IMG/VR virus record: IMGVR_UViG_3300012942_000114 | Span: 1-28,213 of that record | Reading direction: 5' to 3' (one strand) | Length of the DNA: 28,213 bases | DNA from: a virus | Lineage: Duplodnaviria > Caudoviricetes | In this document: one piece after another, positions 3,590-27,374 of the stretch | Position numbering within the stretch: the first letter of the stretch is position 1 | Layout: every line of letters starts with the position of its first letter | The notes under the pieces: generated by a model | What the model was told of the DNA's origin: nothing | Seen by the model: the letters and a program-made list of their open reading frames with translations, nothing else | The model's database searches: none | Made by a program: the position numbers and the translations under genes

Positions 3590-4249
3590 TCAGGAGCTGA
3601 AGCCCATGTCGGTCAGCAGCGCGGCCCAGCCGGGGCCGCCGAAGAAGGTCTTCTCCGAGAAGCCCAGCACCGAGTCGGTGAACGAGGAGAACGTCACCGA
3701 CCACATGATCGGGTCGTCGCCGCTGTTCTGGTTCTGGTCGTCGAACGCGGTCACCTTCGCGTTCGGCAGGAACCGGGCGATGTAGATCTCGCCGTCGTCG
3801 GTCTCGTCGACCGCGATCGACAGAACCCGGTAGTGCCGGGCGACCGGGGTAGACGGCTTCGCGATCGACACCTCACCCGAGGACGAGTCGGCGGTGATGG
3901 TCGACGTGTCGACGCCCAGGTACAGGCCGATCGTGGCCAGCTTCGTCTCCTGGCAGGCCACCTGGAGAGTGGTCTGGTCCTTGGTGACGTCGGACCGGGT
4001 CGGCTCGGTCGAACCCCACGACGTGACATCCGAGGTGTCGGTGTCGCGGGAGAACTGGGCGCCGTCGTCGGTCAGCCAGCCGAGATCGGTGTAGCCGGCC
4101 GGCAGCGCCGCCAGCTTCTTGTCGCTGGAGTCGGTCAGTGCAGTGATCGCCGTGGCGTCCACGTCCGCGATGAACACGGAACCGTTGAGCGCCTTACGGA
4201 TCAGCTGGTTCTTCTTGGTTGCAAGTGCCGAGTAGCTGGATCCAGCCAT
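3590..4249 (-). CDS. Major tail protein
   Basis: Motifs LGWLTDDG, DVTSWG, TRSDVT are typical of actinophage tail tube proteins; ATG 4249 with RBS GGTGGAG; synteny. Confidence 0.92.
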   Translation of the reverse strand: MAGSSYSALATKKNQLIRKALNGSVFIADVDATAITALTDSSDKKLAALPAGYTDLGWLTDDGAQFSRDTDTSDVTSWGSTEPTRSDVTKDQTTLQVACQETKLATIGLYLGVDTSTITADSSSGEVSIAKPSTPVARHYRVLSIAVDETDDGEIYIARFLPNAKVTAFDDQNQNSGDDPIMWSVTFSSFTDSVLGFSEKTFFGGPGWAALLTDMGFSS

Positions 4250-10629: not shown

Positions 10630-12324
10630 TTAGCGAATCCGTTTCGGCACGTAGTGTCGGTTGTCGACGTTGGCCAGGCCCTTCGCCACCGCGTCGTTAC
10701 GCGCCTGCCACGCCAACACCGCGGCGATGAACGCGTCGATCTTGCGGGGGGACTTCGGGAAGTCCTTCTTCACCGTCAAGTGGTTGTGGTCGATGCGGCG
10801 CCGGCCCTGCACCGTGTGCTTCCACAAGATCGGATGCCCGTCGTGCGACAGCTCCTTCTGCACCACGGCCTCCTGGAACGACAGGAACGCCCGCTCCGCC
10901 TTCATCACCGAACCGCCGGTCATCCACCACTCGATCGGATGCGCCTTCGGGCCGATTTGCAGCCGCTCCCCGTACCGGGCCTCCCATGTGCTGACCCAGC
11001 CCTCCCAGCGGGCCGGGTCGGCGTAGAAGCCCACCACGCGGTACTTCTTGAAGCACTGCGCCACCGCGGCATCCACCTGGTCCGCGGGCGGGGTCCAGCC
11101 CTTGCCCTTCGGGCCCTCCGGCTGCTCCCACACGTCCACCAGGAACAAGTGCCCGTCCTTCACCCGGCAGCCCACCAGGGCCGTCGAGTCCGCCACGCCC
11201 GACTTCACGCCGCGCGAGCCGTCGAAGCCCAACACCACCGTGTCGCCAGCCGCGATCTCCGGGATGTCCCGGGCCAGCTTCTCCGCGTACACCGCGTTCC
11301 ACTCGTAGTTGGCGATGAACTGGTCAGAGGCGTGCGTGATCTGGTTCAGGAAGTTGCCGCGGGCCATCTGAAGGTCGCCGTTCGGCGACCGGATCGAGTT
11401 CATCCGGTCTTCGAGGTCCGCCCAGCCCGGCCGAATGCACGGCGGGTCGTGGATCACGCACTCGTCGATGTCCGCCGAGTCGCCGTACGCGACCGCCAGG
11501 CCATGCAGCAGCGACGCGTCGTCATCGATGTCCGTGTCGCCCGGCGCCTCGCGGTGGTCGTACAGCAGCGTGTTCGGAACCTTGCGGCCCTCCACGATCG
11601 CCGACCAGAACGCCGCCGTCTCCTCCGCCACCGAACCCTCGCCCGGCACGAACGCGTTCGGCGACTCCAGCGTCGAACCGCCGATCTTCGTCGCGTTGTC
11701 CCGAAGCACCTGAGCCAGCCGCAGCCCGCCGTTGGTGGCGACCCACTCCTCCGTCTGGTCCATGATGCTGAACACCGCGCGGGCGCCCTTGATGGACCGA
11801 GCCGATGACGGCATGGGCTCAATCCGGCCGCTCGGAAGGTTCACGAACCCGCCCAGCGGCTCAGTGCCGGGGTAGTTGTCCAGCACCGGGCCCTCAAGCA
11901 GCTCCAGGATCGGCGTCCACGAGTTCCGCATGACCTGCTTGTCGGAGACCGCGGCCACCAACACCAGCGGCGTCCGGATCTCCGACCACGGGATCCCCAC
12001 CGGCTGCCCGTCGGCGTCCCAGCCGCCCGGCACCACCGGGCCCAGAGCCTCCGCGCACGCGATCGCCGCCAAAAACGGCGACTTCCCCCAACCACGAGGC
12101 CGCGACAGCACGCCCTGGCGGATCTTCCGCTTGCCCTGGCCCCGCTTGCCCTCCGGGTCAATCTCGTAGAACCGCAGCAGAAACTCGGCCTGCTCCCGGG
12201 TCACGATGTACGGCCTGTAGCGGCCGCTGCCGGTGTCCGGGGCCGCCAAGTTCTCCGCCATCCAGTCGATGACGTCGTAGCCCAGCGTCGGCCGCTCACC
12301 CTCGAACGTCGGCTTCCACGGCAT
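10630..12324 (-). CDS. terL: Terminase large subunit
   Basis: Walker A RPRGWGKS, Walker B-like IMDQTE, nuclease LGFDGS, C-terminal SPRKIDA. Confidence 0.96.
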   Translation of the reverse strand: MPWKPTFEGERPTLGYDVIDWMAENLAAPDTGSGRYRPYIVTREQAEFLLRFYEIDPEGKRGQGKRKIRQGVLSRPRGWGKSPFLAAIACAEALGPVVPGGWDADGQPVGIPWSEIRTPLVLVAAVSDKQVMRNSWTPILELLEGPVLDNYPGTEPLGGFVNLPSGRIEPMPSSARSIKGARAVFSIMDQTEEWVATNGGLRLAQVLRDNATKIGGSTLESPNAFVPGEGSVAEETAAFWSAIVEGRKVPNTLLYDHREAPGDTDIDDDASLLHGLAVAYGDSADIDECVIHDPPCIRPGWADLEDRMNSIRSPNGDLQMARGNFLNQITHASDQFIANYEWNAVYAEKLARDIPEIAAGDTVVLGFDGSRGVKSGVADSTALVGCRVKDGHLFLVDVWEQPEGPKGKGWTPPADQVDAAVAQCFKKYRVVGFYADPARWEGWVSTWEARYGERLQIGPKAHPIEWWMTGGSVMKAERAFLSFQEAVVQKELSHDGHPILWKHTVQGRRRIDHNHLTVKKDFPKSPRKIDAFIAAVLAWQARNDAVAKGLANVDNRHYVPKRIR

Positions 12325-12912: not shown

Positions 12913-13788
12913 CTACGAGCCCTGCACATACGACCGCAACGGAACCAGCCGCGGATCCGTTGACGGAGACTGCAACTTGTCCATCGACCAGGCGCACACG
13001 CCCCGAAGGCCCAGCGACTTCGCCGAGGCGACCTTCGCCGCCACCGCCGCCTGCGTCGTGTCCACATAGGACGGGTCCAAGCCGATGCCCAGCATGATCT
13101 TCGACGCCGGAACGCCCCCCGAGATGTACGCCGACACGTCGACCACCCCGTCGTTCCAATACGTCATCACGTTCACCACATCAACCGACGAGGCCGCCGC
13201 CGCCACGATCGGGACCGGATGCTGCCCCAGGTCCACCGCCGTCGACAGCTGCTTGCCCGCCGGGCGGGCCGCGTTCAGCTTCGACAACAGCGACACGAAC
13301 GGAGCCTGCGTAACCGACTCTTCCCAGTCGATGTCCACCCCGTCGTACCCGTAGTCCGTGCACGCCGCCCAGATCGCCGACACGAACCCGTCGATGCGCG
13401 CCGACGCCGTGCTCGCCACGAACTGAGAGCCGAACCCCTCCGACCCGATCGTCAACACACACGACCGGCCCGCGGCATGCACCGCGGTGATCGTCGCCGA
13501 CCGGCGGGCCGCCGTGATGTCGGTGAACGTGACCGTCCCGGTGTTGGTCGGGTAGCAGCCGAAGTGCGACACCTGCGTCCACGCCGAGTAGTCCGGCGCC
13601 GTCGCCGGAATGCTGCCCTGCGTCCAGCCCGGGAACCACACCAGGGCCTCACCGCCGGCCTCCGGATCCTCCGGCGGGTCCTGCGGGGCCAACGCCGCCA
13701 CAGTCGCCTCCAGGGCCGCCACGCGGCCCTCCAGGTCCGTCACCCGCCCGGCCAGCTGCGTCACGTCACCGGGGCCCACACCGATCAC
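12913..13788 (-). CDS. Glycoside hydrolase family 18 (chitinase-like) with N-terminal coiled coil
   Basis: DGVDIDWE (DxDxE) catalytic motif, VNVMTY, SKIMLG, GLRGVCAWS; GTG 13788 overlaps the HNH stop. Confidence 0.88.
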   Translation of the reverse strand: MIGVGPGDVTQLAGRVTDLEGRVAALEATVAALAPQDPPEDPEAGGEALVWFPGWTQGSIPATAPDYSAWTQVSHFGCYPTNTGTVTFTDITAARRSATITAVHAAGRSCVLTIGSEGFGSQFVASTASARIDGFVSAIWAACTDYGYDGVDIDWEESVTQAPFVSLLSKLNAARPAGKQLSTAVDLGQHPVPIVAAAASSVDVVNVMTYWNDGVVDVSAYISGGVPASKIMLGIGLDPSYVDTTQAAVAAKVASAKSLGLRGVCAWSMDKLQSPSTDPRLVPLRSYVQGS

Positions 13789-14093
13789 GGAAGGTCCCCC
13801 ATCCCCGGATGCTGCTCCGGCGGCCGTTTGATCGAAACCCGCTTCTTCGCGTCGTTGCCCTCGCGGGACGACTTGTAGCGGTGGCACCACGGCTCGACGT
13901 TCGTGTGCGCCCAGTCCAGGTTCGCCAACCGGTGGTCGTCACCGCGGACGATGTGGTCCAGCTGGTCGCCGCCCGGCTTCCCGCACAAGTGGCAGATATG
14001 CTGCGGGTTCTGGCGGTGCTTCGCCGCCCTCAGCTGATCCCAGTTCGCCGGGAGCCGGCGCCGACGAGACGAGCCAGCCCAGTTACCGGGCAT
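13785..14093 (-). CDS. HNH endonuclease (packaging-associated)
   Basis: RLPANW, CHLC, DHI...DDH...NL...CH-x-x-KS-x-x-EG, RPPEQHPG. Confidence 0.9.
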   Translation of the reverse strand: MPGNWAGSSRRRRLPANWDQLRAAKHRQNPQHICHLCGKPGGDQLDHIVRGDDHRLANLDWAHTNVEPWCHRYKSSREGNDAKKRVSIKRPPEQHPGMGDLP

Positions 14094-16693: not shown

Positions 16694-17080
16694 GGTTCCA
16701 TGGTTCCCGCGGTTCCCCCGGGGCTGCGCCGCCTGGCGCTCTCTATGGTTCCAAGGTTCCCCCCCTTTAGGGGGGGGGAACCTCTGGAACCTTAGAGAGA
16801 GGCGGCTCGCCTGGTTTCCCGGGTCAAGATCAACTGTCAGTTCGGAACCTAGGTTCCATGGTTCCGGAACCGACAAACCGGACTGGCCAGATGCCGTCTG
16901 ACCTGCGGAAACGCTTCGGGTGGTGTGGTACGTCAAGATCCACTCCTGGGTCTCGATCGGCCATCCACACGGGGTCTAGGATGTCTGTTATGGGCGAAAC
17001 GCCCGACCGGGAACCTAGGTTCCATGGTTCCGAACCGAACATTTCGGGCGGCCCCCAGATCTCTGACCTGCGGAAACGCT
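16694..17080. repeat. GGTTCC/GGAACC iteron-like region, candidate replication origin
   Basis: 14 GGTTCC/GGAACC hexamers; 23-bp direct repeat at 16844 and 17010; 19-bp direct repeat at 16897 and 17062; C7/G9 hairpin at 16754-16783. Confidence 0.8.
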
Positions 17081-17178
17081 CCGTAGCCGACCCTACCGTC
17101 CGTGACGGCCACCGGACAGGGGTAACCCGTTCGTGAACTGCCCACAAACCGGTCAGAACCGTACCAGACGTCCTGCTG

Positions 17179-17273
17179 GTTCGATGATCATCGAACTCCC
17201 AGACCCGTACGCATGATTAGGGGCAGCACGCCCCGGTCGCGGATGATATGGGGGGTAGGGGGTCTCCACCCCC
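17179..17273. other. Candidate cos / packaging region
   Basis: Minus strand GGGGGTGGAGACCCCCTACCCCCC...GTACGGGTCTGGGA plus a perfect 18-bp palindrome at 17179-17196. Resembles, from recollection only, sequence near HNH-terS junctions in actinophages. Confidence 0.4.
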
Positions 17274-17287
17274 TCTTGGGGTGTAGT

Positions 17288-18002
17288 AGATTCCTTGTGC
17301 CTGCCTGTCCGTTGTGACGTTGCGTTAGGTCTTCACGCTGTGTGACTCACTCGATTGTGTTTAAGGGATCCCTTGACAGGCTCAAGGTTCTGTGCTCAAG
17401 GAATGCTTGCAAGAATTGTTAACAGATTCCTTTGTCTAATAGATTCCTTAACATCGTAAAAGCATTCTTATAATAGATTCCTTAAGAGATTCCTTATTAA
17501 GAGATTCCCTTTAACAAATCCCTTAATGACAATGCATCATCATTGATACATGCTTACATACATCATGCTTACTTGATACATACATCATTCATGCTTACAT
17601 TGTTCATGCTTATTGATTGTTACATTCATACATTAATCTATTCATTCATGCTTACTTAATCATTGATATAACAATCATGCTTACTTATATCAATCATGCT
17701 TACTTCATATTCATTGTCATTCATTGTTATTCACATACAAATAAGCATGAATGAACATAGATTAACTACATTCAATCATGCTTAGTTGTTTGTACTACCT
17801 AAGCTTGCATGCTTACTTTGTATCTAACCATGCATGCTTACTTATTCTTCCTACTCTGTCCGTTCTTAATGCCTTTGCGGCTACTCTTACTTCCGCCCTT
17901 ACTGCCTGCCTGTTTGGCACTGTTGCCCTTACCGAACCCCGGCTTGCCCTTACCCGTCACGCTCCTCACCTCCCATCACGCTTACTTGACCGGCACGCTT
18001 AC
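17288..18002. repeat. AT-rich non-coding array of AGATTCCTT and CATGCTTAC motifs
   Basis: AGATTCCTT x5 exact, CATGCTTA x10 forward plus 1 inverted, CACGCTTAC x2; 17581-17640 is 16/60 G+C. Confidence 0.92.
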
Positions 18003-18384: not shown

Positions 18385-18405
18385 AGAGTACAGCGCGGGT
18401 TGTAC
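18385..18405 (-). promoter_or_regulatory. Operator 1 overlapping -10 box TACTCT
   Basis: GTACAGC-GCGG-GTTGTAC at 18388-18405. Confidence 0.65.
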
Positions 18406-20063: not shown

Positions 20064-20972
20064 TTACGCGGCGCGGTAGTTGCCGGCCCGGTCCTTCACC
20101 ACCTGATGAGCCTTGAGCATGCGGCGCAGCAACTGGCGAACGTGATCTTCGGTGAGTCCGGTTGCCATGGCCAGTGCCGCACCGGAGTCGCCCACGTTCG
20201 GATCGTTGAGCGCATCGAGAATCTGGCCGCGCGCCCCGGTGATCCCGCGATGTTCGGCAGTCTCCCGGGTGACAACCCACCGCCCATCTTGCAGTGCCAG
20301 CGGCACCATGGCGTCCGGTACGTCTTTGCCGGTCATGAGTAGGGTGGCAACTTCCGACCCCCGGTCGCGCAGCATCATGAGAATCGTGTCGGATGCGGAC
20401 GTGAGACCCTTACTGCCCTGAATACTCGACGTAGGGTCATCACGGTCAATGTGCTTGTTGGTGTGCGTGACCAGAACGATCGGTACACGGTTGTGTTGAT
20501 CCGACAGGTTTTTGAACGAATTGACCAGATCATAGTCACGCTGGTACGTCTGTGGGATGTCCCCGCGGATACGCGCCAGAACGTCCACGATTACCAACCC
20601 GGCATCCGGGTGGTCATCCAACCACTGCGCGATGTCCCCAATCCCGCCGTTCGCCACGGTGGGCATGTCGTACGCCCAGTGCAACTCAACGGGCTCCGGG
20701 CGGCCGTGGAGCGCCATGGCGACGCGTTGCTGTGCCCGGCGGGGTGAGTCTTCTAGTGCGCAGTACAGGACGGGGCCGGACGTGCACTCCAACTTGCCGA
20801 GTGCGGTGGTGCCGGACGCCACCCCGATACCGCAGTCGATTGACACCCACGACTTGCCGGACTTCCACGGTGCGGCGAACAGCGTGATCCCTTCCGGGAT
20901 CAGCCCGTCAACCGCCCATCGAATCGGCGGGTAAGTCTCCCGCATGAGGTCGGTCGTGTCCTGAATCTCCAT
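20064..20972 (-). CDS. RecA-fold AAA_25 ATPase / RepA-like helicase with C-terminal wHTH
   Basis: WAVDGLIPEG, Walker A APWKSGKS, LEDS, Walker B VIVD, HTNK, GS-x-G; ATG 20972. Confidence 0.88.
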   Translation of the reverse strand: MEIQDTTDLMRETYPPIRWAVDGLIPEGITLFAAPWKSGKSWVSIDCGIGVASGTTALGKLECTSGPVLYCALEDSPRRAQQRVAMALHGRPEPVELHWAYDMPTVANGGIGDIAQWLDDHPDAGLVIVDVLARIRGDIPQTYQRDYDLVNSFKNLSDQHNRVPIVLVTHTNKHIDRDDPTSSIQGSKGLTSASDTILMMLRDRGSEVATLLMTGKDVPDAMVPLALQDGRWVVTRETAEHRGITGARGQILDALNDPNVGDSGAALAMATGLTEDHVRQLLRRMLKAHQVVKDRAGNYRAA

Positions 20973-21797: not shown

Positions 21798-21815
21798 GGG
21801 CAACCCGCGCTGTAC
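21798..21815. promoter_or_regulatory. Operator 3 (opposite orientation)
   Basis: GGGCAAC-CCGC-GCTGTAC. Confidence 0.55.
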
Positions 21816-22076: not shown

Positions 22077-22325
22077 CTAGCCCCGGAATCGCGGCCCCAA
22101 CCGCGGCCAGTTGTGCCACGGCACGACGGTAGCGAGGGCAGCCATGCCGCGGGACTGGCCGCGACAGAAGGAGCACTCTTCGATCATGATGTGCGTGTGG
22201 TTGTGGTTGGCGCAGAAGGTGTTCGCGCACGGCACATCGTATGCGATGGCGCCCGCGTCGCCGCATCGGGGGCAGTGCCCGTCGAGGAGGGTGGCGACGA
22301 TCCGCGTCCACGCGTCGCCTGTCAT
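22077..22325 (-). CDS. W-helix family small protein, Cys-rich
   Basis: MTGDAWTRIVATLLDGHCPRC; ATGA overlap. Confidence 0.7.
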   Translation of the reverse strand: MTGDAWTRIVATLLDGHCPRCGDAGAIAYDVPCANTFCANHNHTHIMIEECSFCRGQSRGMAALATVVPWHNWPRLGPRFRG

Positions 22326-22726
22326 GGCATCGCCGTCGGGTGGAAACCCGGGTGGTCGCCGCCGTAGCCGCGGCAGCGTGGGCATGTCTTGGCGAAATGC
22401 CAACCGGGGCCGATCGGCACTTGGCCACCGTCGGAGGCGAGTACGACCCCGACGCCGTCGCACACGCGGCACATGGTGCCGGGGTACATGGCGTTCATGA
22501 TGCGTGCCCACGCTTCTCCGGTCACCGTCCTCCTCCTCTCCATGGCGACGGCTGCCTCGACACGGACCCGCTGGATCAGGTTCATGTCCGTCACCCCGCG
22601 TGCAAGAAACCCGATACCCCCCATGGGTTCCCACACCCTGAGGTTGGCTGGGGTGCAGGTCCAGTCGGCGGCGGCGAGGATGTCGAGCACGGCATCCCAT
22701 CCTTCCGGTGGCGTGTACGGTGTCAT
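22322..22726 (-). CDS. W-helix family protein (two motif copies; DnaJ-like CxxCxG)
   Basis: MTPYTPPEGWDAVLDILAAAD...VTGEAWARIMNAM...CRVCDG...CPRCRG. Confidence 0.72.
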   Translation of the reverse strand: MTPYTPPEGWDAVLDILAAADWTCTPANLRVWEPMGGIGFLARGVTDMNLIQRVRVEAAVAMERRRTVTGEAWARIMNAMYPGTMCRVCDGVGVVLASDGGQVPIGPGWHFAKTCPRCRGYGGDHPGFHPTAMP

Positions 22727-22929
22727 GTCGGTTCCCTTCTGCTGCCCGCACCCCTTCGCAAGGGCTTGTTTACGGCGGTCGTTGTGTGGATCGGAGGCCA
22801 CCCCTTCGCAAGGGGTTGTTTGCGGCGACGCCGTATCGTCCGGATGGCCCCGGCCAGGTCGTGCCGGGCGAGGATGTCGAGGATCCTGTCCCAGCCCTTC
22901 GCAAGGGGTTGTTTTGGGGAGTCGTTCAT
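22723..22929 (-). CDS. W-helix family small protein
   Basis: MNDSPKQPLAKGWDRILDILARHD; ATGA overlap. Confidence 0.62.
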   Translation of the reverse strand: MNDSPKQPLAKGWDRILDILARHDLAGAIRTIRRRRKQPLAKGWPPIHTTTAVNKPLRRGAGSRREPT

Positions 22930-23157
22930 CGGCATGAGGCCCCCGGTTCGTTGTCTTGGTGCGCCCAGTACTGCTCCCACGCGTCGGAGCGAATCCGTTG
23001 CAACCGCCTTGCTTCGGCGACATCGCCGCGGAAGTAGTTGGCGTCTTGGATCCGGTAGTACCGATGGGATGTCGAGTTGCCGATAAAGTCAGGAACGCAG
23101 AGTACGTCGAGCAGCTGGTTCCACTGATGGTTCGCAAGGGGTTGATTTCGCAAGGGG
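22751..23157. repeat. TTCGCAAGGG(G) motif x5
   Basis: Copies at 22755, 22805, 22898, 23131 and 23147. Confidence 0.85.
22926..23153 (-). CDS. W-helix family small protein
   Basis: ...NHQWNQLLDVLCVPD; TTG start uncertain. Confidence 0.58.
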   Translation of the reverse strand: MRNQPLANHQWNQLLDVLCVPDFIGNSTSHRYYRIQDANYFRGDVAEARRLQRIRSDAWEQYWAHQDNEPGASCR

Positions 23158-23162
23158 TTCTC

Positions 23163-23351
23163 CTAGTCGAGGGCGGCCAGTTGCCGGGAGTACTCCCACC
23201 AGCGCGAGCTGACTTCCGCCTGCACCTTGTAAAGCCGCCGGCCGGGATGCATGCTGTCCACCAGCTTGTACCACCGGCGGTCGTTCATCCACGACCAGGC
23301 TTCTTCGTCGGCGGCGCCGAGCACATCAAGCACCTGCCCCCAGCCGGTCAC
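23163..23351 (-). CDS. W-helix family small protein
   Basis: VTGWGQVLDVLGAAD; GTGA overlap. Confidence 0.68.
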   Translation of the reverse strand: MTGWGQVLDVLGAADEEAWSWMNDRRWYKLVDSMHPGRRLYKVQAEVSSRWWEYSRQLAALD

Positions 23352-23434
23352 CACCGGTCCCACCACCCCCTGCACACCGGGCACACCGGCACCCGAAGCG
23401 CCTCAAGGATCTTCCGCCAGTCACTGCCCACCAC
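23348..23434 (-). CDS. W-helix family micro-protein (28 aa; not in ORF track)
   Basis: VVGSDWRKILEALRVPVCPVCRGWWDRW*; fills the gap and is coupled to the next gene. Confidence 0.55.
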   Translation of the reverse strand: MVGSDWRKILEALRVPVCPVCRGWWDRW

Positions 23435-24932
23435 GGTCCCACTCCCTCCGGTAGTGCCCCAGGTTCGTCAGGATCGACATCCTGCCCCGCTGCACACTCG
23501 ACACGTACCCCTCCGCCACCAGGCAGTCGATCGCCCGCAGCTTCAGCTGTTTCTGCCCCGACACCGCCTCGCACACCTGCGTCTTCGTCGCCCCCGCATG
23601 CGTGGCGAGGTACCGGGAGATCGCCTCCATGAGGATCGTGGGGCGGGGCTGCCCGTCCTCACCCTCGGGCATCTCCTCCGGCACCCGCAGCTCCCACTTC
23701 AGCTCGCCCTCGGTGCGTTCATCCAGCACCAGCTCCCCCACCGCCTTGCCGGCGGCGCCCACCTGGTTCGGCCGATCCTTCGACACCCGCACGATCGCCT
23801 TACCCTCGGCGCCCCGGTCGAACGGCGTCACCACCTCGAACATGTACATGGCGCCGTCCAGCCCAGCCAGCTTGTGCTGCCCGCCGATCGCCCACCGGCC
23901 CCGCGAATCCCGGTCCTTCGCCACGTGGTCAACCAGCACCACCGACGGCCCGGCCTGGTGTTCACCGGCCAGCCGGGCGATGTAGCGGGGCAGCAGATCG
24001 TAGAAGGTGGCGACCTGATGGTTCGGGTCGCCTTGGGTTTCCAGGCCCTGCGACATCATCGCCTCGGTGACACCGTCGATGACGACGAACGCCGGCAGGA
24101 TCTGGTCGTGCTCGGCCCGCAGCAACGCCTTCGCCGGGGAGTCGATGCCGCGGATGGGCCGGTGGTACTTGAGGTGCCGGCGGATCGCGTCAGCTGGCAC
24201 CCCGAGCTTCAGGAGGCGCGACACGATGCCTTTGGCGGAGTCCTCGTAGTCGATGTACACGACGTTGCGTCCGCGCAGCAGGCACTGGGCGGTGGCGACG
24301 AGCACCAGCCACGACTTGCCGGAGCCGGGTTCCCCGGCGACGGAGTGGACGCGGCCGGGGTAGAACAGGAACTGCCCGTCCACGCGCATCAGCACGTTCG
24401 GCGGGTCGACATCTTCGCCGCCTTCGATCGCGGCTTCCAGGTCCACCGGCGCCCAGTCGTCGTCGTCGAGGTGGGTGTGGTGGTCGAGCTTGTCGAGGGC
24501 GTCGCGGGCTTCGGTGGCGGCCAGGTCGAGGGCTTCGACATCGGCGTGCCGGATGGCCCGCTGCATCCGCATCGCGGCCTGGTCGGCGGCACGCAGCCGG
24601 GCAACCTTCGCCGCCTGCTTCAGGTAGTAGTCGAGCTGGACGGGCAGGGGCGCTTCGGAGACGAGGGTGTGCGCGTAGGCGAGGTCTTCGGGGGTGAGCC
24701 CGTCGGCCTGCAACAGGGCGTACAGGTCGGTGCCGTAGCCGTCGTCGTCCTGTTTGAGGATGACCTGCCAGATGCGCTGGTGGCGGGGTTCCCAGCACCA
24801 GTTGTTGGGGAGGGCCTGCCGGGCCCGGACGACGGGTTCGCGGTCGCCGCGGAGGAGCGCACCAAGCACCGCACCCTCGCACTGTGGGTCGTGCGGGGTC
24901 GTTGCCTCTTCCTCTTCGGCGGGTGCCGTCAC
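23421..24932 (-). CDS. Replicative helicase-like protein: DnaB N-terminal-like domain + AAA_25 + wHTH
   Basis: PHD-x-x-x-E-x-AVLG N-terminus, Walker A GEPGSGKS, YIDYED, Walker B VVIDG, DHVAK; GTG 24932 overlaps the upstream stop. Confidence 0.88.
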   Translation of the reverse strand: MTAPAEEEEATTPHDPQCEGAVLGALLRGDREPVVRARQALPNNWCWEPRHQRIWQVILKQDDDGYGTDLYALLQADGLTPEDLAYAHTLVSEAPLPVQLDYYLKQAAKVARLRAADQAAMRMQRAIRHADVEALDLAATEARDALDKLDHHTHLDDDDWAPVDLEAAIEGGEDVDPPNVLMRVDGQFLFYPGRVHSVAGEPGSGKSWLVLVATAQCLLRGRNVVYIDYEDSAKGIVSRLLKLGVPADAIRRHLKYHRPIRGIDSPAKALLRAEHDQILPAFVVIDGVTEAMMSQGLETQGDPNHQVATFYDLLPRYIARLAGEHQAGPSVVLVDHVAKDRDSRGRWAIGGQHKLAGLDGAMYMFEVVTPFDRGAEGKAIVRVSKDRPNQVGAAGKAVGELVLDERTEGELKWELRVPEEMPEGEDGQPRPTILMEAISRYLATHAGATKTQVCEAVSGQKQLKLRAIDCLVAEGYVSSVQRGRMSILTNLGHYRREWDRGGQ

Positions 24933-25090
24933 AGGGGCTCGCCCGTCAGCTCCTGGTGCCACTTGCGTGCAAGCTGCTCGGCTCCGGGGTACCTGAACAT
25001 GCGCGTATAGGCGCGCACGTGGTACGGGCCTATCGCGACCTCGTTGGCGGCGAGGACACCCAGCACCCTGCTCCACCCCCTGCGGTTCAT
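24929..25090 (-). CDS. W-helix family small protein
   Basis: MNRRGWSRVLGVLAANE; ATGA overlap. Confidence 0.68.
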   Translation of the reverse strand: MNRRGWSRVLGVLAANEVAIGPYHVRAYTRMFRYPGAEQLARKWHQELTGEPL

Positions 25091-25254
25091 GCCCACAGCG
25101 CCAGCCACCTGTCCCATGTCTGTTCGCAGATCCGGCGCAGCCGCACAGTCGATCCGTCGTCCGGGTACAGACTGGCGTAGGCATCGAACACGCCGCGGAG
25201 ATATTCCGCGGCGTGCAGAACCCGGCACACCTCGATCCAGTCCCTGCGGTTCAT
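25087..25254 (-). CDS. W-helix family small protein (55 aa; not in ORF track)
   Basis: MNRRDWIEVCRVLHAAE...EQTWDRWLALWA*; ATGA overlaps at both ends. Confidence 0.72.
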   Translation of the reverse strand: MNRRDWIEVCRVLHAAEYLRGVFDAYASLYPDDGSTVRLRRICEQTWDRWLALWA

Positions 25255-25439
25255 GGCGCCCACCCCCTTCGCTCACAGAACCGTTGGTACGTCTCGTACT
25301 CGATATCGGCCAACACCCCAGGCAGCGGCCCCTTCTTGGGCGGAAACAACCGCCGGTACCGCTGGTACGCGTTGCAGGGCGCCTCGTGGTCGGCGGCGCA
25401 CAGCACCTGGCACACCGTGATCCAGTCCTGCCGGCTCAT
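25251..25439 (-). CDS. W-helix family small protein
   Basis: MSRQDWITVCQVLCAAD; ATGA overlap. Confidence 0.72.
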   Translation of the reverse strand: MSRQDWITVCQVLCAADHEAPCNAYQRYRRLFPPKKGPLPGVLADIEYETYQRFCERRGWAP

Positions 25440-25633
25440 CGTCCGTCCTTCCGTCGGCATGCGGTGCAGCGGATGCGGTGGTACTTGGATCGCCGGGATG
25501 GGCTGAAGTGTGAGATCCAGCGACCACTCGCGATGTCCACGTCTACGGGACCTTCACCGAGCATTGTTGGCCCGCCCCAGATGATCCCGGCGTGCAGCAG
25601 CCCCACCAGGTCCGCCCATTCGCGCCTAGTCAA
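25436..25633 (-). CDS. W-helix family small protein
   Basis: LTRREWADLVGLLHAG; TTG start. Confidence 0.62.
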   Translation of the reverse strand: MTRREWADLVGLLHAGIIWGGPTMLGEGPVDVDIASGRWISHFSPSRRSKYHRIRCTACRRKDGR

Positions 25634-25641
25634 CGCTCCCA

Positions 25642-25818
25642 CTAGCCCGGCACCTTCCACTCCCACTGCGCCTCCCGCACTGTGCGGGTCAGCTTCTCCA
25701 ACGCCGCAACGAGACACCGATTCTTCGCCCGGTAGGCGTCGAGCCACGGCTGCCCGAACCCTTCGGTGTCGTGCGCCTTCAGCACGGGCAGGATCGCCTC
25801 GAACTGCTCCCGGTTCAT
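25642..25818 (-). CDS. W-helix family variant (Phe)
   Basis: MNREQFEAILPVLKAHD; ATGA overlap. Confidence 0.68.
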   Translation of the reverse strand: MNREQFEAILPVLKAHDTEGFGQPWLDAYRAKNRCLVAALEKLTRTVREAQWEWKVPG

Positions 25819-26030
25819 GTGACCGACTCCAGAAGCCGCAACCGCCACCCGATCTGACCCAACCAGAACGCGTGATCACCCGGGCGACAGTTCAAGTCCC
25901 AGTCGTACGCCATCAGCGTCGTCAGCAGCAGCTTCCAGCAGAACTGGACCTTCAGCCGTCCAGCGCCGACCGTGGCATCCGGTCCAGCCGGTAGATCATT
26001 CCGTTCGGTAGATGCGCCCACTTCCTGCAC
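25815..26030 (-). CDS. W-helix family small protein (start uncertain)
   Basis: ...VQFCWKLLLTTLMAYD; no good start codon near the motif. Confidence 0.45.
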   Translation of the reverse strand: MQEVGASTERNDLPAGPDATVGAGRLKVQFCWKLLLTTLMAYDWDLNCRPGDHAFWLGQIGWRLRLLESVT

Positions 26031-26128
26031 TCCCTCCAGCCAGACTCGGTCACCCTGGCGTACTCGACGATGTCCACGTTGTGCTCGATCAGCGGCTCAA
26101 TGATCCGCAGCCAGTCCCCGCGGGTCAC
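25952..26128 (-). CDS. W-helix family small protein
   Basis: VTRGDWLRIIEPLIEHN; GTGA overlap, GGGAGG RBS. Confidence 0.7.
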   Translation of the reverse strand: MTRGDWLRIIEPLIEHNVDIVEYARVTESGWRECRKWAHLPNGMIYRLDRMPRSALDG

Positions 26129-26334
26129 AGCCCCTCCCCGTGCGCGAACCGGCGGTGCATCCGCCAGCCGTACGGCCCGTCCAGCAACTGGGTCTTCGAC
26201 CAGTCCACGGCCACCCAGTCGCAGTCCGGGCAGATAATCCGTAGCCACCGAGGCTTGTGCCCCGGGTAGTTCGGCTCGATCCACACCGGAACACCGGCGC
26301 CCCGCAGCACGGCGACAATGCCGGCCCAGTTCAC
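26125..26334 (-). CDS. W-helix family protein with C2H2-like motif
   Basis: VNWAGIVAVLRG...CPDC...H-x-x-x-x-H. Confidence 0.7.
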   Translation of the reverse strand: MNWAGIVAVLRGAGVPVWIEPNYPGHKPRWLRIICPDCDWVAVDWSKTQLLDGPYGWRMHRRFAHGEGL

Positions 26335-26594
26335 GACGCCGCCGCCCACCGCCACCGCAGCCTCGCCGCAGAAAACGCCTCAGGATGCTTCTCCGCCAGG
26401 TGCCCGTTCATCGCCGGGCCGAACTCGGCCGCGTCCTCCGGATGCCCCACGCAGCCCTCGGTGCATCCCCGTACCGGGCAGCGCATCTGGATCTGCGGCA
26501 AGTTGAAGAACTTGGCCAGCGGGCTGAACTTCTCCGTCGAAGGCACCGGCATCGGGTAGCCCCACAACACCGCCACGATCGCGTTCCAGTTCAC
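26331..26594 (-). CDS. W-helix family protein with C2H2-like motif
   Basis: VNWNAIVAVLWGYP...CPVRGC...HLAEKH. Confidence 0.7.
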   Translation of the reverse strand: MNWNAIVAVLWGYPMPVPSTEKFSPLAKFFNLPQIQMRCPVRGCTEGCVGHPEDAAEFGPAMNGHLAEKHPEAFSAARLRWRWAAAS

Positions 26595-26896
26595 GACGCC
26601 CACCTGCCCAGCAGCCGGTGCGGATACAGCCACCGCCGCCACGTGTGCGACGCCCGGTAATGCCGCCGCATCTCCCTGCGCCACGCGTGCCGCGGCCCCA
26701 CGCCGGCCATGCCGTTCTGGCAGCCGCGGTGCGGGCACTCCATCACCTTCACCTCTTCGACCGGCACCAGCATCAGACCCATCACCATGTTGGCCCGGAT
26801 GTTCGCCGCCGCACCAGGATCCGCCGGGACCGGCACCGGGAAGCCGCGCAGCACGGCCGTGATCTTCGCCCAGTCCGTTACTCGCTCAGCCACCAC
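26591..26896 (-). CDS. W-helix family protein with C2H2-like motif
   Basis: VTDWAKITAVLRGFP...CPHRGC...HYRASH. Confidence 0.7.
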   Translation of the reverse strand: MVAERVTDWAKITAVLRGFPVPVPADPGAAANIRANMVMGLMLVPVEEVKVMECPHRGCQNGMAGVGPRHAWRREMRRHYRASHTWRRWLYPHRLLGRWAS

Positions 26897-27066
26897 TTCG
26901 CTGTCTCCTCATCTACTGGCCGGGCCTTCCGGCCGCGTTCTCCGACCAGCCACTGCATGCTGCCCTGGTCGTACATGACGATCGTCTCGTTCGACGCTTG
27001 GCCGCCCCAGTCGTCGTGCTTCCGCAGCACCTTGAGCAGGTCGCACCACATCGGTCGCCTACTCAT
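26878..27066 (-). CDS. W-helix family small protein
   Basis: MSRRPMWCDLLKVLRKHD. Confidence 0.68.
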   Translation of the reverse strand: MSRRPMWCDLLKVLRKHDDWGGQASNETIVMYDQGSMQWLVGERGRKARPVDEETAKWWLSE

Positions 27067-27169
27067 CGGCGTTCCACCCCAGGTACACGTCGGCGCTCGC
27101 ATTGATGATCATCTCGACGGTCGTGTCGTATTCCTCCAGAACGTCGAGGATCGCGTCCCAGTCAGTCAT
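27059..27169 (-). CDS. W-helix family micro-protein (36 aa; not in ORF track)
   Basis: MTDWDAILDVLEEYDTTVEMIINASADVYLGWNADE*; RBS GGAGGTG. Confidence 0.7.
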   Translation of the reverse strand: MTDWDAILDVLEEYDTTVEMIINASADVYLGWNADE

Positions 27170-27374
27170 CGGTGGTCACCTCCACCGACAGCTCCTTGAT
27201 GCCGCCCCGCATGTTCACCGTGCACCGCACCGGCGTGACGGTCGCAGACCCCGACCGGTTGTACGCCTCCTGCGCCATGTCGTCCACAGCGTGCGCGAAC
27301 TGGGCCACCTCGAACCAGTCCATGCCGTGCTTGAGATCCACAGCCTTGCGCTTCACGATCGTCCTAGTCGTCAT
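27162..27374 (-). CDS. Hypothetical protein
   Basis: 70 aa, coupled to neighbours. Confidence 0.7.
   Translation of the reverse strand: MTTRTIVKRKAVDLKHGMDWFEVAQFAHAVDDMAQEAYNRSGSATVTPVRCTVNMRGGIKELSVEVTTDD

Follow-up and report, generated by a model that had tools for sequence, protein, structure and literature searches.

In T-even phages, the internal proteins Ip1-3 have only an N-terminal leader in common, which directs their packaging, and each blocks a different GmrSD (PMC12373910). Ten residues are enough for capsid targeting, and the Ip-like proteins are described as basic (PMC9026906). Three further systems have something of this economy: SaPI1 CpmB and the 80alpha scaffolding protein, in which a short shared helix (the RIIK helix-and-hook) plugs different proteins into one site (PMC5644958); the SPO1 host-takeover module, a cluster of small phage genes of no assigned function, together with the ClpC adaptor-like Gp53, a phage protein docking on a host hub (PMC6873191); and the PeSL cassettes in the hyperplastic regions of T4-type phages, where short repeated elements delimit modules that closely related phages gain, lose, and replace (PMC2839356). 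The subject of this work is an array of 18 predicted small genes in the virus record IMGVR_UViG_3300012942_000114 (Caudoviricetes, completeness about 49%), whose 28,213 nt constitute the window analyzed here. The encoded proteins begin with the same short motif, the tag, and continue with differing payloads. The family they form is real and previously undescribed, and population data show directly that payloads turn over while the tag stays fixed. A preliminary description of this DNA, made without a search, knew of no described family like it. That holds for the family itself, which has no match in the libraries or the open-access papers searched, but not for its architecture, which has a precedent in the T-even internal proteins (PMC12373910, PMC9026906): the architecture is already known and the family is new.

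The 18 open reading frames (ORFs), of 28-134 amino acids (aa), are tiled along the minus strand between positions 27169 and 22077, 12 before and 6 after a helicase gene (Table 1). Their third-position GC content (GC3) is 0.71-0.92, and several had already been called by the gene callers of public protein sets. All 18 motifs of the preliminary description were recovered where it had placed them, each within the first 3-13 residues of its ORF; an additional internal copy proposed for m17 (AWARIMNAM) was discarded, since by eye it lacks the invariant Leu. Most genes had been reported to be joined by 4-nt overlaps, and this was measured for 12 of the 18 relative to the preceding gene, one of them (m07) only if a CTG start is used; the spacings of the other six are -8, -8, -19, -14, +8, and +9. 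Start codons are uncertain for m03, m07, m09, and m15.

The consensus of all 18 N-termini is [WF]-x-x-[ILV]-h-x-h-L. In a leave-one-out profile the members score 2.9-27.5 bits, with a median of 16.6, versus at most 0.8 bits for the N-termini of 36 other genes (18/18 against 0/36). The originally proposed form, W-x-x-h-h-x-h-L, is satisfied by 12 members with strict h and by 16 when h includes A and T. The means over 20,000 shuffles were 0.04 and 0.12 and the maxima 2 and 3. A loose pattern fitted to the ORFs has 21 matches in the six frames of the 28 kb, 18 of which are at array N-termini. At 27283-27332 (minus strand), the gene directly upstream of m01 contains an internal stretch that is 72% like m11 tag DNA, with the Trp present and Leu+7 absent.

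As suspected from the low DNA similarity (the 39-nt tags average 50% identity, range 33-79%), conservation resides at the protein level: the second codon positions are informative and synonymous change is free. Among 30 tag copies (18 from the window and 12 from relatives), Leu+7, numbered from the Trp at position 0, is present in all 30 and is written in four codons (CTC 16, CTG 12, TTG 1, CTT 1), the Trp is present in 27, and position +3 is I, L, or V in 29. These three residues interchange freely at the positions neighboring Leu+7; Leu+7 itself never changes. By this codon evidence, the motif is selected as protein.

Behind the tag, the claim of unrelated C-termini stands between payload classes but fails within neighboring clusters. 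After removal of the tag, one of 153 pairs of window payloads reaches z of at least 5 (m03-m04) and three reach z of at least 4; m03-m05 and their relatives nevertheless share C-P and H-x4-H in a C2H2-like pattern, of which the first C, the P, and both H are invariant in 6/6 sequences and the second C is absent in one ortholog. This payload has no Pfam match, and the best fold hit of the m05 model (Z 5.2), from a model with a predicted local distance difference test (pLDDT) of 59, is uninformative. Searching with the C2H2-like subfamily gave 10 matches and no tagless full-length protein; one gene call begins inside the tag. CxxC motifs occur in m13, m17, and m18, and by eye a second helix that ends with Pro recurs in m10, m11, m12, and m14, a likeness below statistical support. 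The members are also distinct in composition: net charge is zero or positive in 16 of 18, versus 3 of 13 other small ORFs (mostly acidic), and Trp content is 5.5% versus 2.1%, although part of this excess may come from the ribosome-binding site of the next gene. The shortest tagged proteins in the window and its relatives (28, 36, and 39 aa) are barely more than tag and tail.

Seven helicases at 50-87% identity form a small clade, the next matches being at most 47% identical, and two of its loci, L062 (helicase 74%) and L063 (helicase 70%), were examined. In L062, nine tagged genes precede the helicase, including one in which Ala stands in for Trp; an untagged gene lies among the nine, and a tenth tagged gene follows the helicase. 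L063 has two tagged genes ahead of the helicase. Only 2 of the 12 tagged payloads are clearly homologous (z of at least 13) to window payloads, namely m04 and m06, with one weaker case (m05). Tags of the m08 and m09 types reappear at similar positions in relatives with different payloads. The untagged gene inside the L062 array, a Cys/His-rich ORF, and the member with Ala lie at 605-844 and 936-1214.

Environmental sequencing runs extend this picture to populations. Among the runs listed as containing array-region DNA, 24/24 are from soil or rhizosphere and none is an RNA run; seven of the 24 (X1-X7) were compared against the window. In run X1, possibly the sample of origin, a single contig spans 21573-28213 with 3 differences from the window. 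Four further soil runs were compared over 24935-27200 at 80% likeness, which yielded 14 listed joints. Likeness ends between the Trp and position +16 in 12 of the 14, an interval that makes up 27% of the stretch (7/9 once neighboring ends are merged, p 0.002); it begins again at a gene start in 12 of the 14 (merged 7/9, p 0.0003). One joint, found in two runs, connects the Trp codons of m01 and m03 with 6 shared letters. In run X4, five of six array joints chosen among those listed end in a tag, and the sixth removes the whole of m17. Hand translation of loose ends showed that +3, +4, +6, and Leu+7 are kept behind the m04 Trp, and Leu+7, His+10, and Asp+11 behind the m01 tag.

As far as searched, the tag family appears confined to this clade. 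The tag profile matched 0 of 50 more distant phage records (12 at least 90% complete), compared with 8 matches in the window's own record, and clusters of more than two tags per 2.5 kb were found among 261 loci only in the window itself (L061) and in L062. When 1.84 and 5.8 billion proteins were searched with profiles, the matches were proteins of the window, members of the clade, alleles, and three repeat artefacts, although distant arrays could be missed, since a profile of 22 positions is weak on sets that large (the members have E of 0.06-520); the eight matches of the search of 1.84 billion were two window proteins, three alleles, and three repeat proteins, the last rejected as false. Among GenBank phages, m04 and m06 had no match at E of 1 or less, and in the 6.7-kb region only the helicase gave a match, to a single record. 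The ESM Atlas gave no match for m14 and only unnamed clusters at 0.91 or lower for m04. Viral-contig scans with m11 and with the tag DNA pattern found nothing, and an M-N-W pattern scan gave 26 loci with an array in none. The first helix of DnaA domain I and of winged-helix domains is a look-alike of the tag. This identity was rejected because the remainder of the domain does not follow the tag helix, no member having a DnaA_N or helix-turn-helix match at E of 1 or less. The open-access literature searched contains no account of such a tagged family.

Structure prediction places a helix over the tag in both modeled members: m05 (pLDDT 59; H4-12) then continues with strands and m11 (pLDDT 74; H3-19) with two more helices, each model resting on 2-3 sequences and being of low-to-medium confidence. 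By established helix rules, the leader M-[NTSD]-[RP]-x-[DQE]-W would act as an N-cap, and positions 0, 3, 4, 6, 7, and 10 share one 160-degree arc of the helix. Against PDB sequences the best E of the tag profile was 0.25. A look-alike in the C-terminal part of LINE-1 ORF1p was rejected as chance (E 0.64 from the tag profile; Z 3.3-3.5 in the fold search).

The reading that we prefer, with a probability of about 0.55, is that the tag helix docks on one common partner, of whatever kind, and carries exchangeable payloads. Following the N-cap leader, an amphipathic helix would present W0, +3, +4, +6, +7, and +10 as one broad hydrophobic face, and the invariant Leu+7 and near-invariant Trp would be received by a shaped pocket in a different protein. 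Binding in such a pocket seems the best explanation because Leu+7 never varies across unrelated payloads, in proteins down to 28 aa. Adjacent tags are more similar than distant ones (0.56 versus 0.50, p 0.0014), which points to local duplication as the likely mode of growth of the family. The roughly 50 nt of tag DNA may then serve as a handle for the gain, loss, and swap of payloads, which are likely to be fast-evolving counter-defence or host-takeover effectors. The constant-tag and variable-payload architecture first proposed from the letters of the window is borne out in that relatives keep the tag and change the payload, that conservation is at the protein level, and that the two models differ after the tag helix.

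As for the partner, the leading single guess, a tentative one drawn by analogy, is the prohead (scaffold or capsid protein), with payloads packed and injected like the T-even internal proteins. It leads because those proteins are the only characterized system of the same build that was found. Like them (PMC12373910, PMC9026906, PMC3012670), the array consists of small, non-essential-looking genes in a hypervariable locus, which share a short N-terminal leader alone, carry unrelated bodies that vary between close phages, and encode neutral-to-basic proteins. Unlike them, it has a tag of about 14 residues anchored by Trp and Leu, comprises at least 18 genes in one operon around a helicase, and belongs to a siphovirus with a scaffold-type head and not to a T4-like myovirus. 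The L/I-x-E motif cleaved by the prohead protease (PMC9026906) is not kept either, Leu+7 being combined with Glu at +9 in only 2 of 30 copies. By its leader, cleavage motif, and phage type, the array falls outside the Ip family, though it may function similarly. The remaining systems are more distant. In CpmB, the helix is C-terminal and common with the scaffold (PMC5644958), whereas the scaffold encoded here lacks the tag (0.9 bits versus the member median of 16.6), and mimicry of that kind is not supported for this reason. As described, Gp53 is one adaptor and not a tag-sharing family (PMC6873191), and it has no sequence match to the array; the PeSLs are non-coding promoter-terminator units (PMC2839356), in contrast to a repeat that is coding and selected as protein.

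Several observations weigh against a common docking partner with swapped payloads. The scaffold and the capsid protein are both without the motif (best scaffold window 0.9 bits). The proposed effector function has no family support, as no member matched Pfam at the curated cut-off, PHROGs or NCBIfam at E below 0.001, or PADLOC. As amphipathic patterns go, that of the tag is generic: in the terminase, a conserved helix (residues 135-147, about 11885-11922 on the minus strand) scores 15.3 bits on the tag profile. The match is probably due to chance, and the helix was rejected as a model for the tag, being conserved in array-less phages, with an estimated 0.2 or so such windows expected among 6680. 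The joints mark the end of 80% likeness rather than proven crossovers, some have short sides, and the interval from the Trp to +16 was fixed after the data were seen. Allele P0134 diverges directly behind the tag but retains the m11 C-terminus, and the paralogy of m03-m05 may mean that part of the family arose by whole-domain divergence. Finally, the ratio of nonsynonymous to synonymous substitution rates (dN/dS) is about 0.54, 0.40, and 0.76 in three member pairs versus 0.29 for the helicase, and 19 of the 40 listed variants, out of 220, are synonymous. By these measures, the array genes are constrained but fast-evolving.

The alternative that survives best, though we consider it unlikely, is that the tag is a private structural leader, spread by tandem duplication, which packs on its own body or aids expression or stability and has no common partner. 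The greater likeness of adjacent tags, the paralogy of m03-m05 along their length, the fit of the pattern to ordinary core helices such as that of the terminase, and the two models, in which the tag is merely the first helix, are all in its favor. It accounts less well for payload classes that differ (one pair in 153), for proteins too short to bury a helix, and for a Leu+7 that is invariant across unrelated contexts.

Two other versions of the shared docking helix differ from the prohead guess in the partner. A doubtful one, which we hold about as tentatively as that guess, is a machine of the host, for example the ClpC1 unfoldase or RNA polymerase, to which swappable payloads would each recruit and deliver a different defence, regulatory, or other host protein. 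The array sits in the helicase operon and not in the virion block, its zinc-finger-like and Trp-rich payloads would suit binding modules, and there is one phage adaptor as a precedent, SPO1 Gp53, which binds ClpC and competes with MecA (PMC6873191). However, Gp53 is a single 25-kDa protein rather than a tagged array, and Pfam, PHROGs, NCBIfam, and PDB sequences gave no sequence tie to any adaptor. Docking on the phage's own helicase, or tag-tag binding, with the effectors escorted at the replication fork, is quite unlikely. The helicase gene lies inside the array, flanked on either side by overlapping tagged genes both in the window and in L062, and helicase loci at 32-48% identity lack an array; gene adjacency by itself is weak, however, and 18 proteins would presumably compete for few sites per hexamer.

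A membrane anchor or a mimic of an export signal is distinctly improbable. An amphipathic helix with a leading Trp and payloads rich in Trp and Arg would be in keeping with it, and m09, m11, and m12 start with R-R-x-W, like a twin-arginine signal, which consists of R-R-x-F followed by a hydrophobic core. On the other hand, the net charge of the tag is zero or negative in 14 of 18 members (-6 in m01), and a lipid-facing position would need no invariant Leu. The twin-arginine identity itself was rejected by inspection, as R-R-x-W is found in 3 of 30 copies and a charged helix without a hydrophobic core follows R-R. Least probable of all is a conserved DNA or RNA element (a recombination site or translational-coupling signal) with the peptide as a by-product, for although likeness blocks begin at gene starts and end in tags, the m01/m03 Trp-codon joint has its 6 shared letters, and T4-type phages owe shuffling of this kind to PeSL cassettes (PMC2839356), the information lies in second codon positions with synonymous change free, and mean tag DNA identity is 50%.

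Table 1. Members of the tagged array, the embedded helicase, and the associated repeats (window coordinates).
Feature	Position	Strand	Description
m01	27059..27169	-	36 aa; tag and short acidic tail
m02	26878..27066	-	62 aa
m03	26591..26896	-	101 aa, start uncertain; tag and C2H2-like payload; alleles P0138, P0140
m04	26331..26594	-	87 aa; tag and C2H2-like payload; alleles P0135, P0137; ortholog L062:103-378
m05	26125..26334	-	69 aa; beta strands predicted after the tag helix; CPxC..H-x4-H; alleles P0132, P0143
m06	25952..26128	-	58 aa; ortholog L062:766-939 (z 27.9; dN 0.41, dS 0.76)
m07	25815..25955	-	about 46 aa; uncertain CTG start; weakest tag, 2.9 bits
m08	25642..25818	-	58 aa; Phe replaces Trp; near-identical tag with unrelated payload in L062; allele P0124
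m09	25436..25633	-	65 aa; TTG start; same tag with other payload in L062, L063, and runs X4-X7
m10	25251..25439	-	62 aa
m11	25087..25254	-	55 aa; three helices predicted (pLDDT 74); allele P0134
m12	24929..25090	-	53 aa; 4-nt overlap with helicase start
Helicase (DnaB-N + AAA_25)	23421..24932	-	503 aa; untagged, embedded within the array
m13	23348..23434	-	28 aa; tag and CxxC
m14	23163..23351	-	62 aa
m15	22926..23153	-	75 aa; leader overlaps dyad repeats
m16	22723..22929	-	68 aa; dyad repeats encode part of leader and tail
m17	22322..22726	-	134 aa; CxxC pairs; sub-threshold DnaJ/anti-TRAP matches; missing from one run X4 contig
m18	22077..22325	-	82 aa; CxxC pairs; in run X4 tag retained and likeness lost at Leu+7; allele P0131
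AACCCCTTGCGAA repeats	22755..23159	-	five copies (0.05 expected), three as perfect CCCTT-GCG-AAGGG dyads

The AACCCCTTGCGAA repeats supply the Q-P-L-A leaders of m15 and m16, and two copies are also present in L062, at about 3840-3875; the dyad cluster would be operator- or origin-like. A scan of viral contigs for the dyad pattern gave two loci, both unrelated. A second short element, CAACCCGCG[CT]TG, is found at 18391, 20028, and 21971 (minus strand) and at 21801 (plus strand), near the starts of untagged gene blocks. Four copies were reached in 1 of 100 shuffles, and the element is possibly a phage promoter or operator.

The window carries head and tail genes of siphovirus type and a portion of an early or replication region. 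An actinomycete is the likely host of the virus, to judge from the capsid protein, which shares 40-43% identity with its counterparts in the Streptomyces phages Samy, VWB, SF1, and SF3, and from the terminase, whose proviral copies in genomes of Streptomyces, Embleya, Micromonosporaceae, and Jiangellaceae are 53-59% identical. At 20064-20972 (minus strand) lies the gene of a second RecA-like AAA_25 ATPase, which has a weak winged-helix match in its C-terminal part; the viral-contig scan gave no close relative of it. Between the HNH and small terminase genes, a 325-aa gene (12913-13890, minus strand) without a PHROG match carries a DxDxE-type motif, which we take to resemble that of family-18 glycoside hydrolases. 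An AT-rich stretch at approximately 17150-17990 (46% GC in 17001-18000) has many TCATGCTTA copies and no convincing gene and is possibly a genome end or origin. At the contig end (1-135), three 45-nt tandem repeats lie inside the tape-measure gene.

Most small phage genes are orphans that are studied singly. Here, a single pull-down or virion proteome would classify at least 18 otherwise orphan small genes through one common handle, in an array whose payloads turn over among relatives in the wild. Were the tag to load proteins into heads, it would represent a second capsid-targeting system, independent of the first, and a tool for delivery in actinomycetes. Were its docking site a host protease or polymerase, the array would be a modular adaptor library, each payload of which would point to a host defence or regulator.

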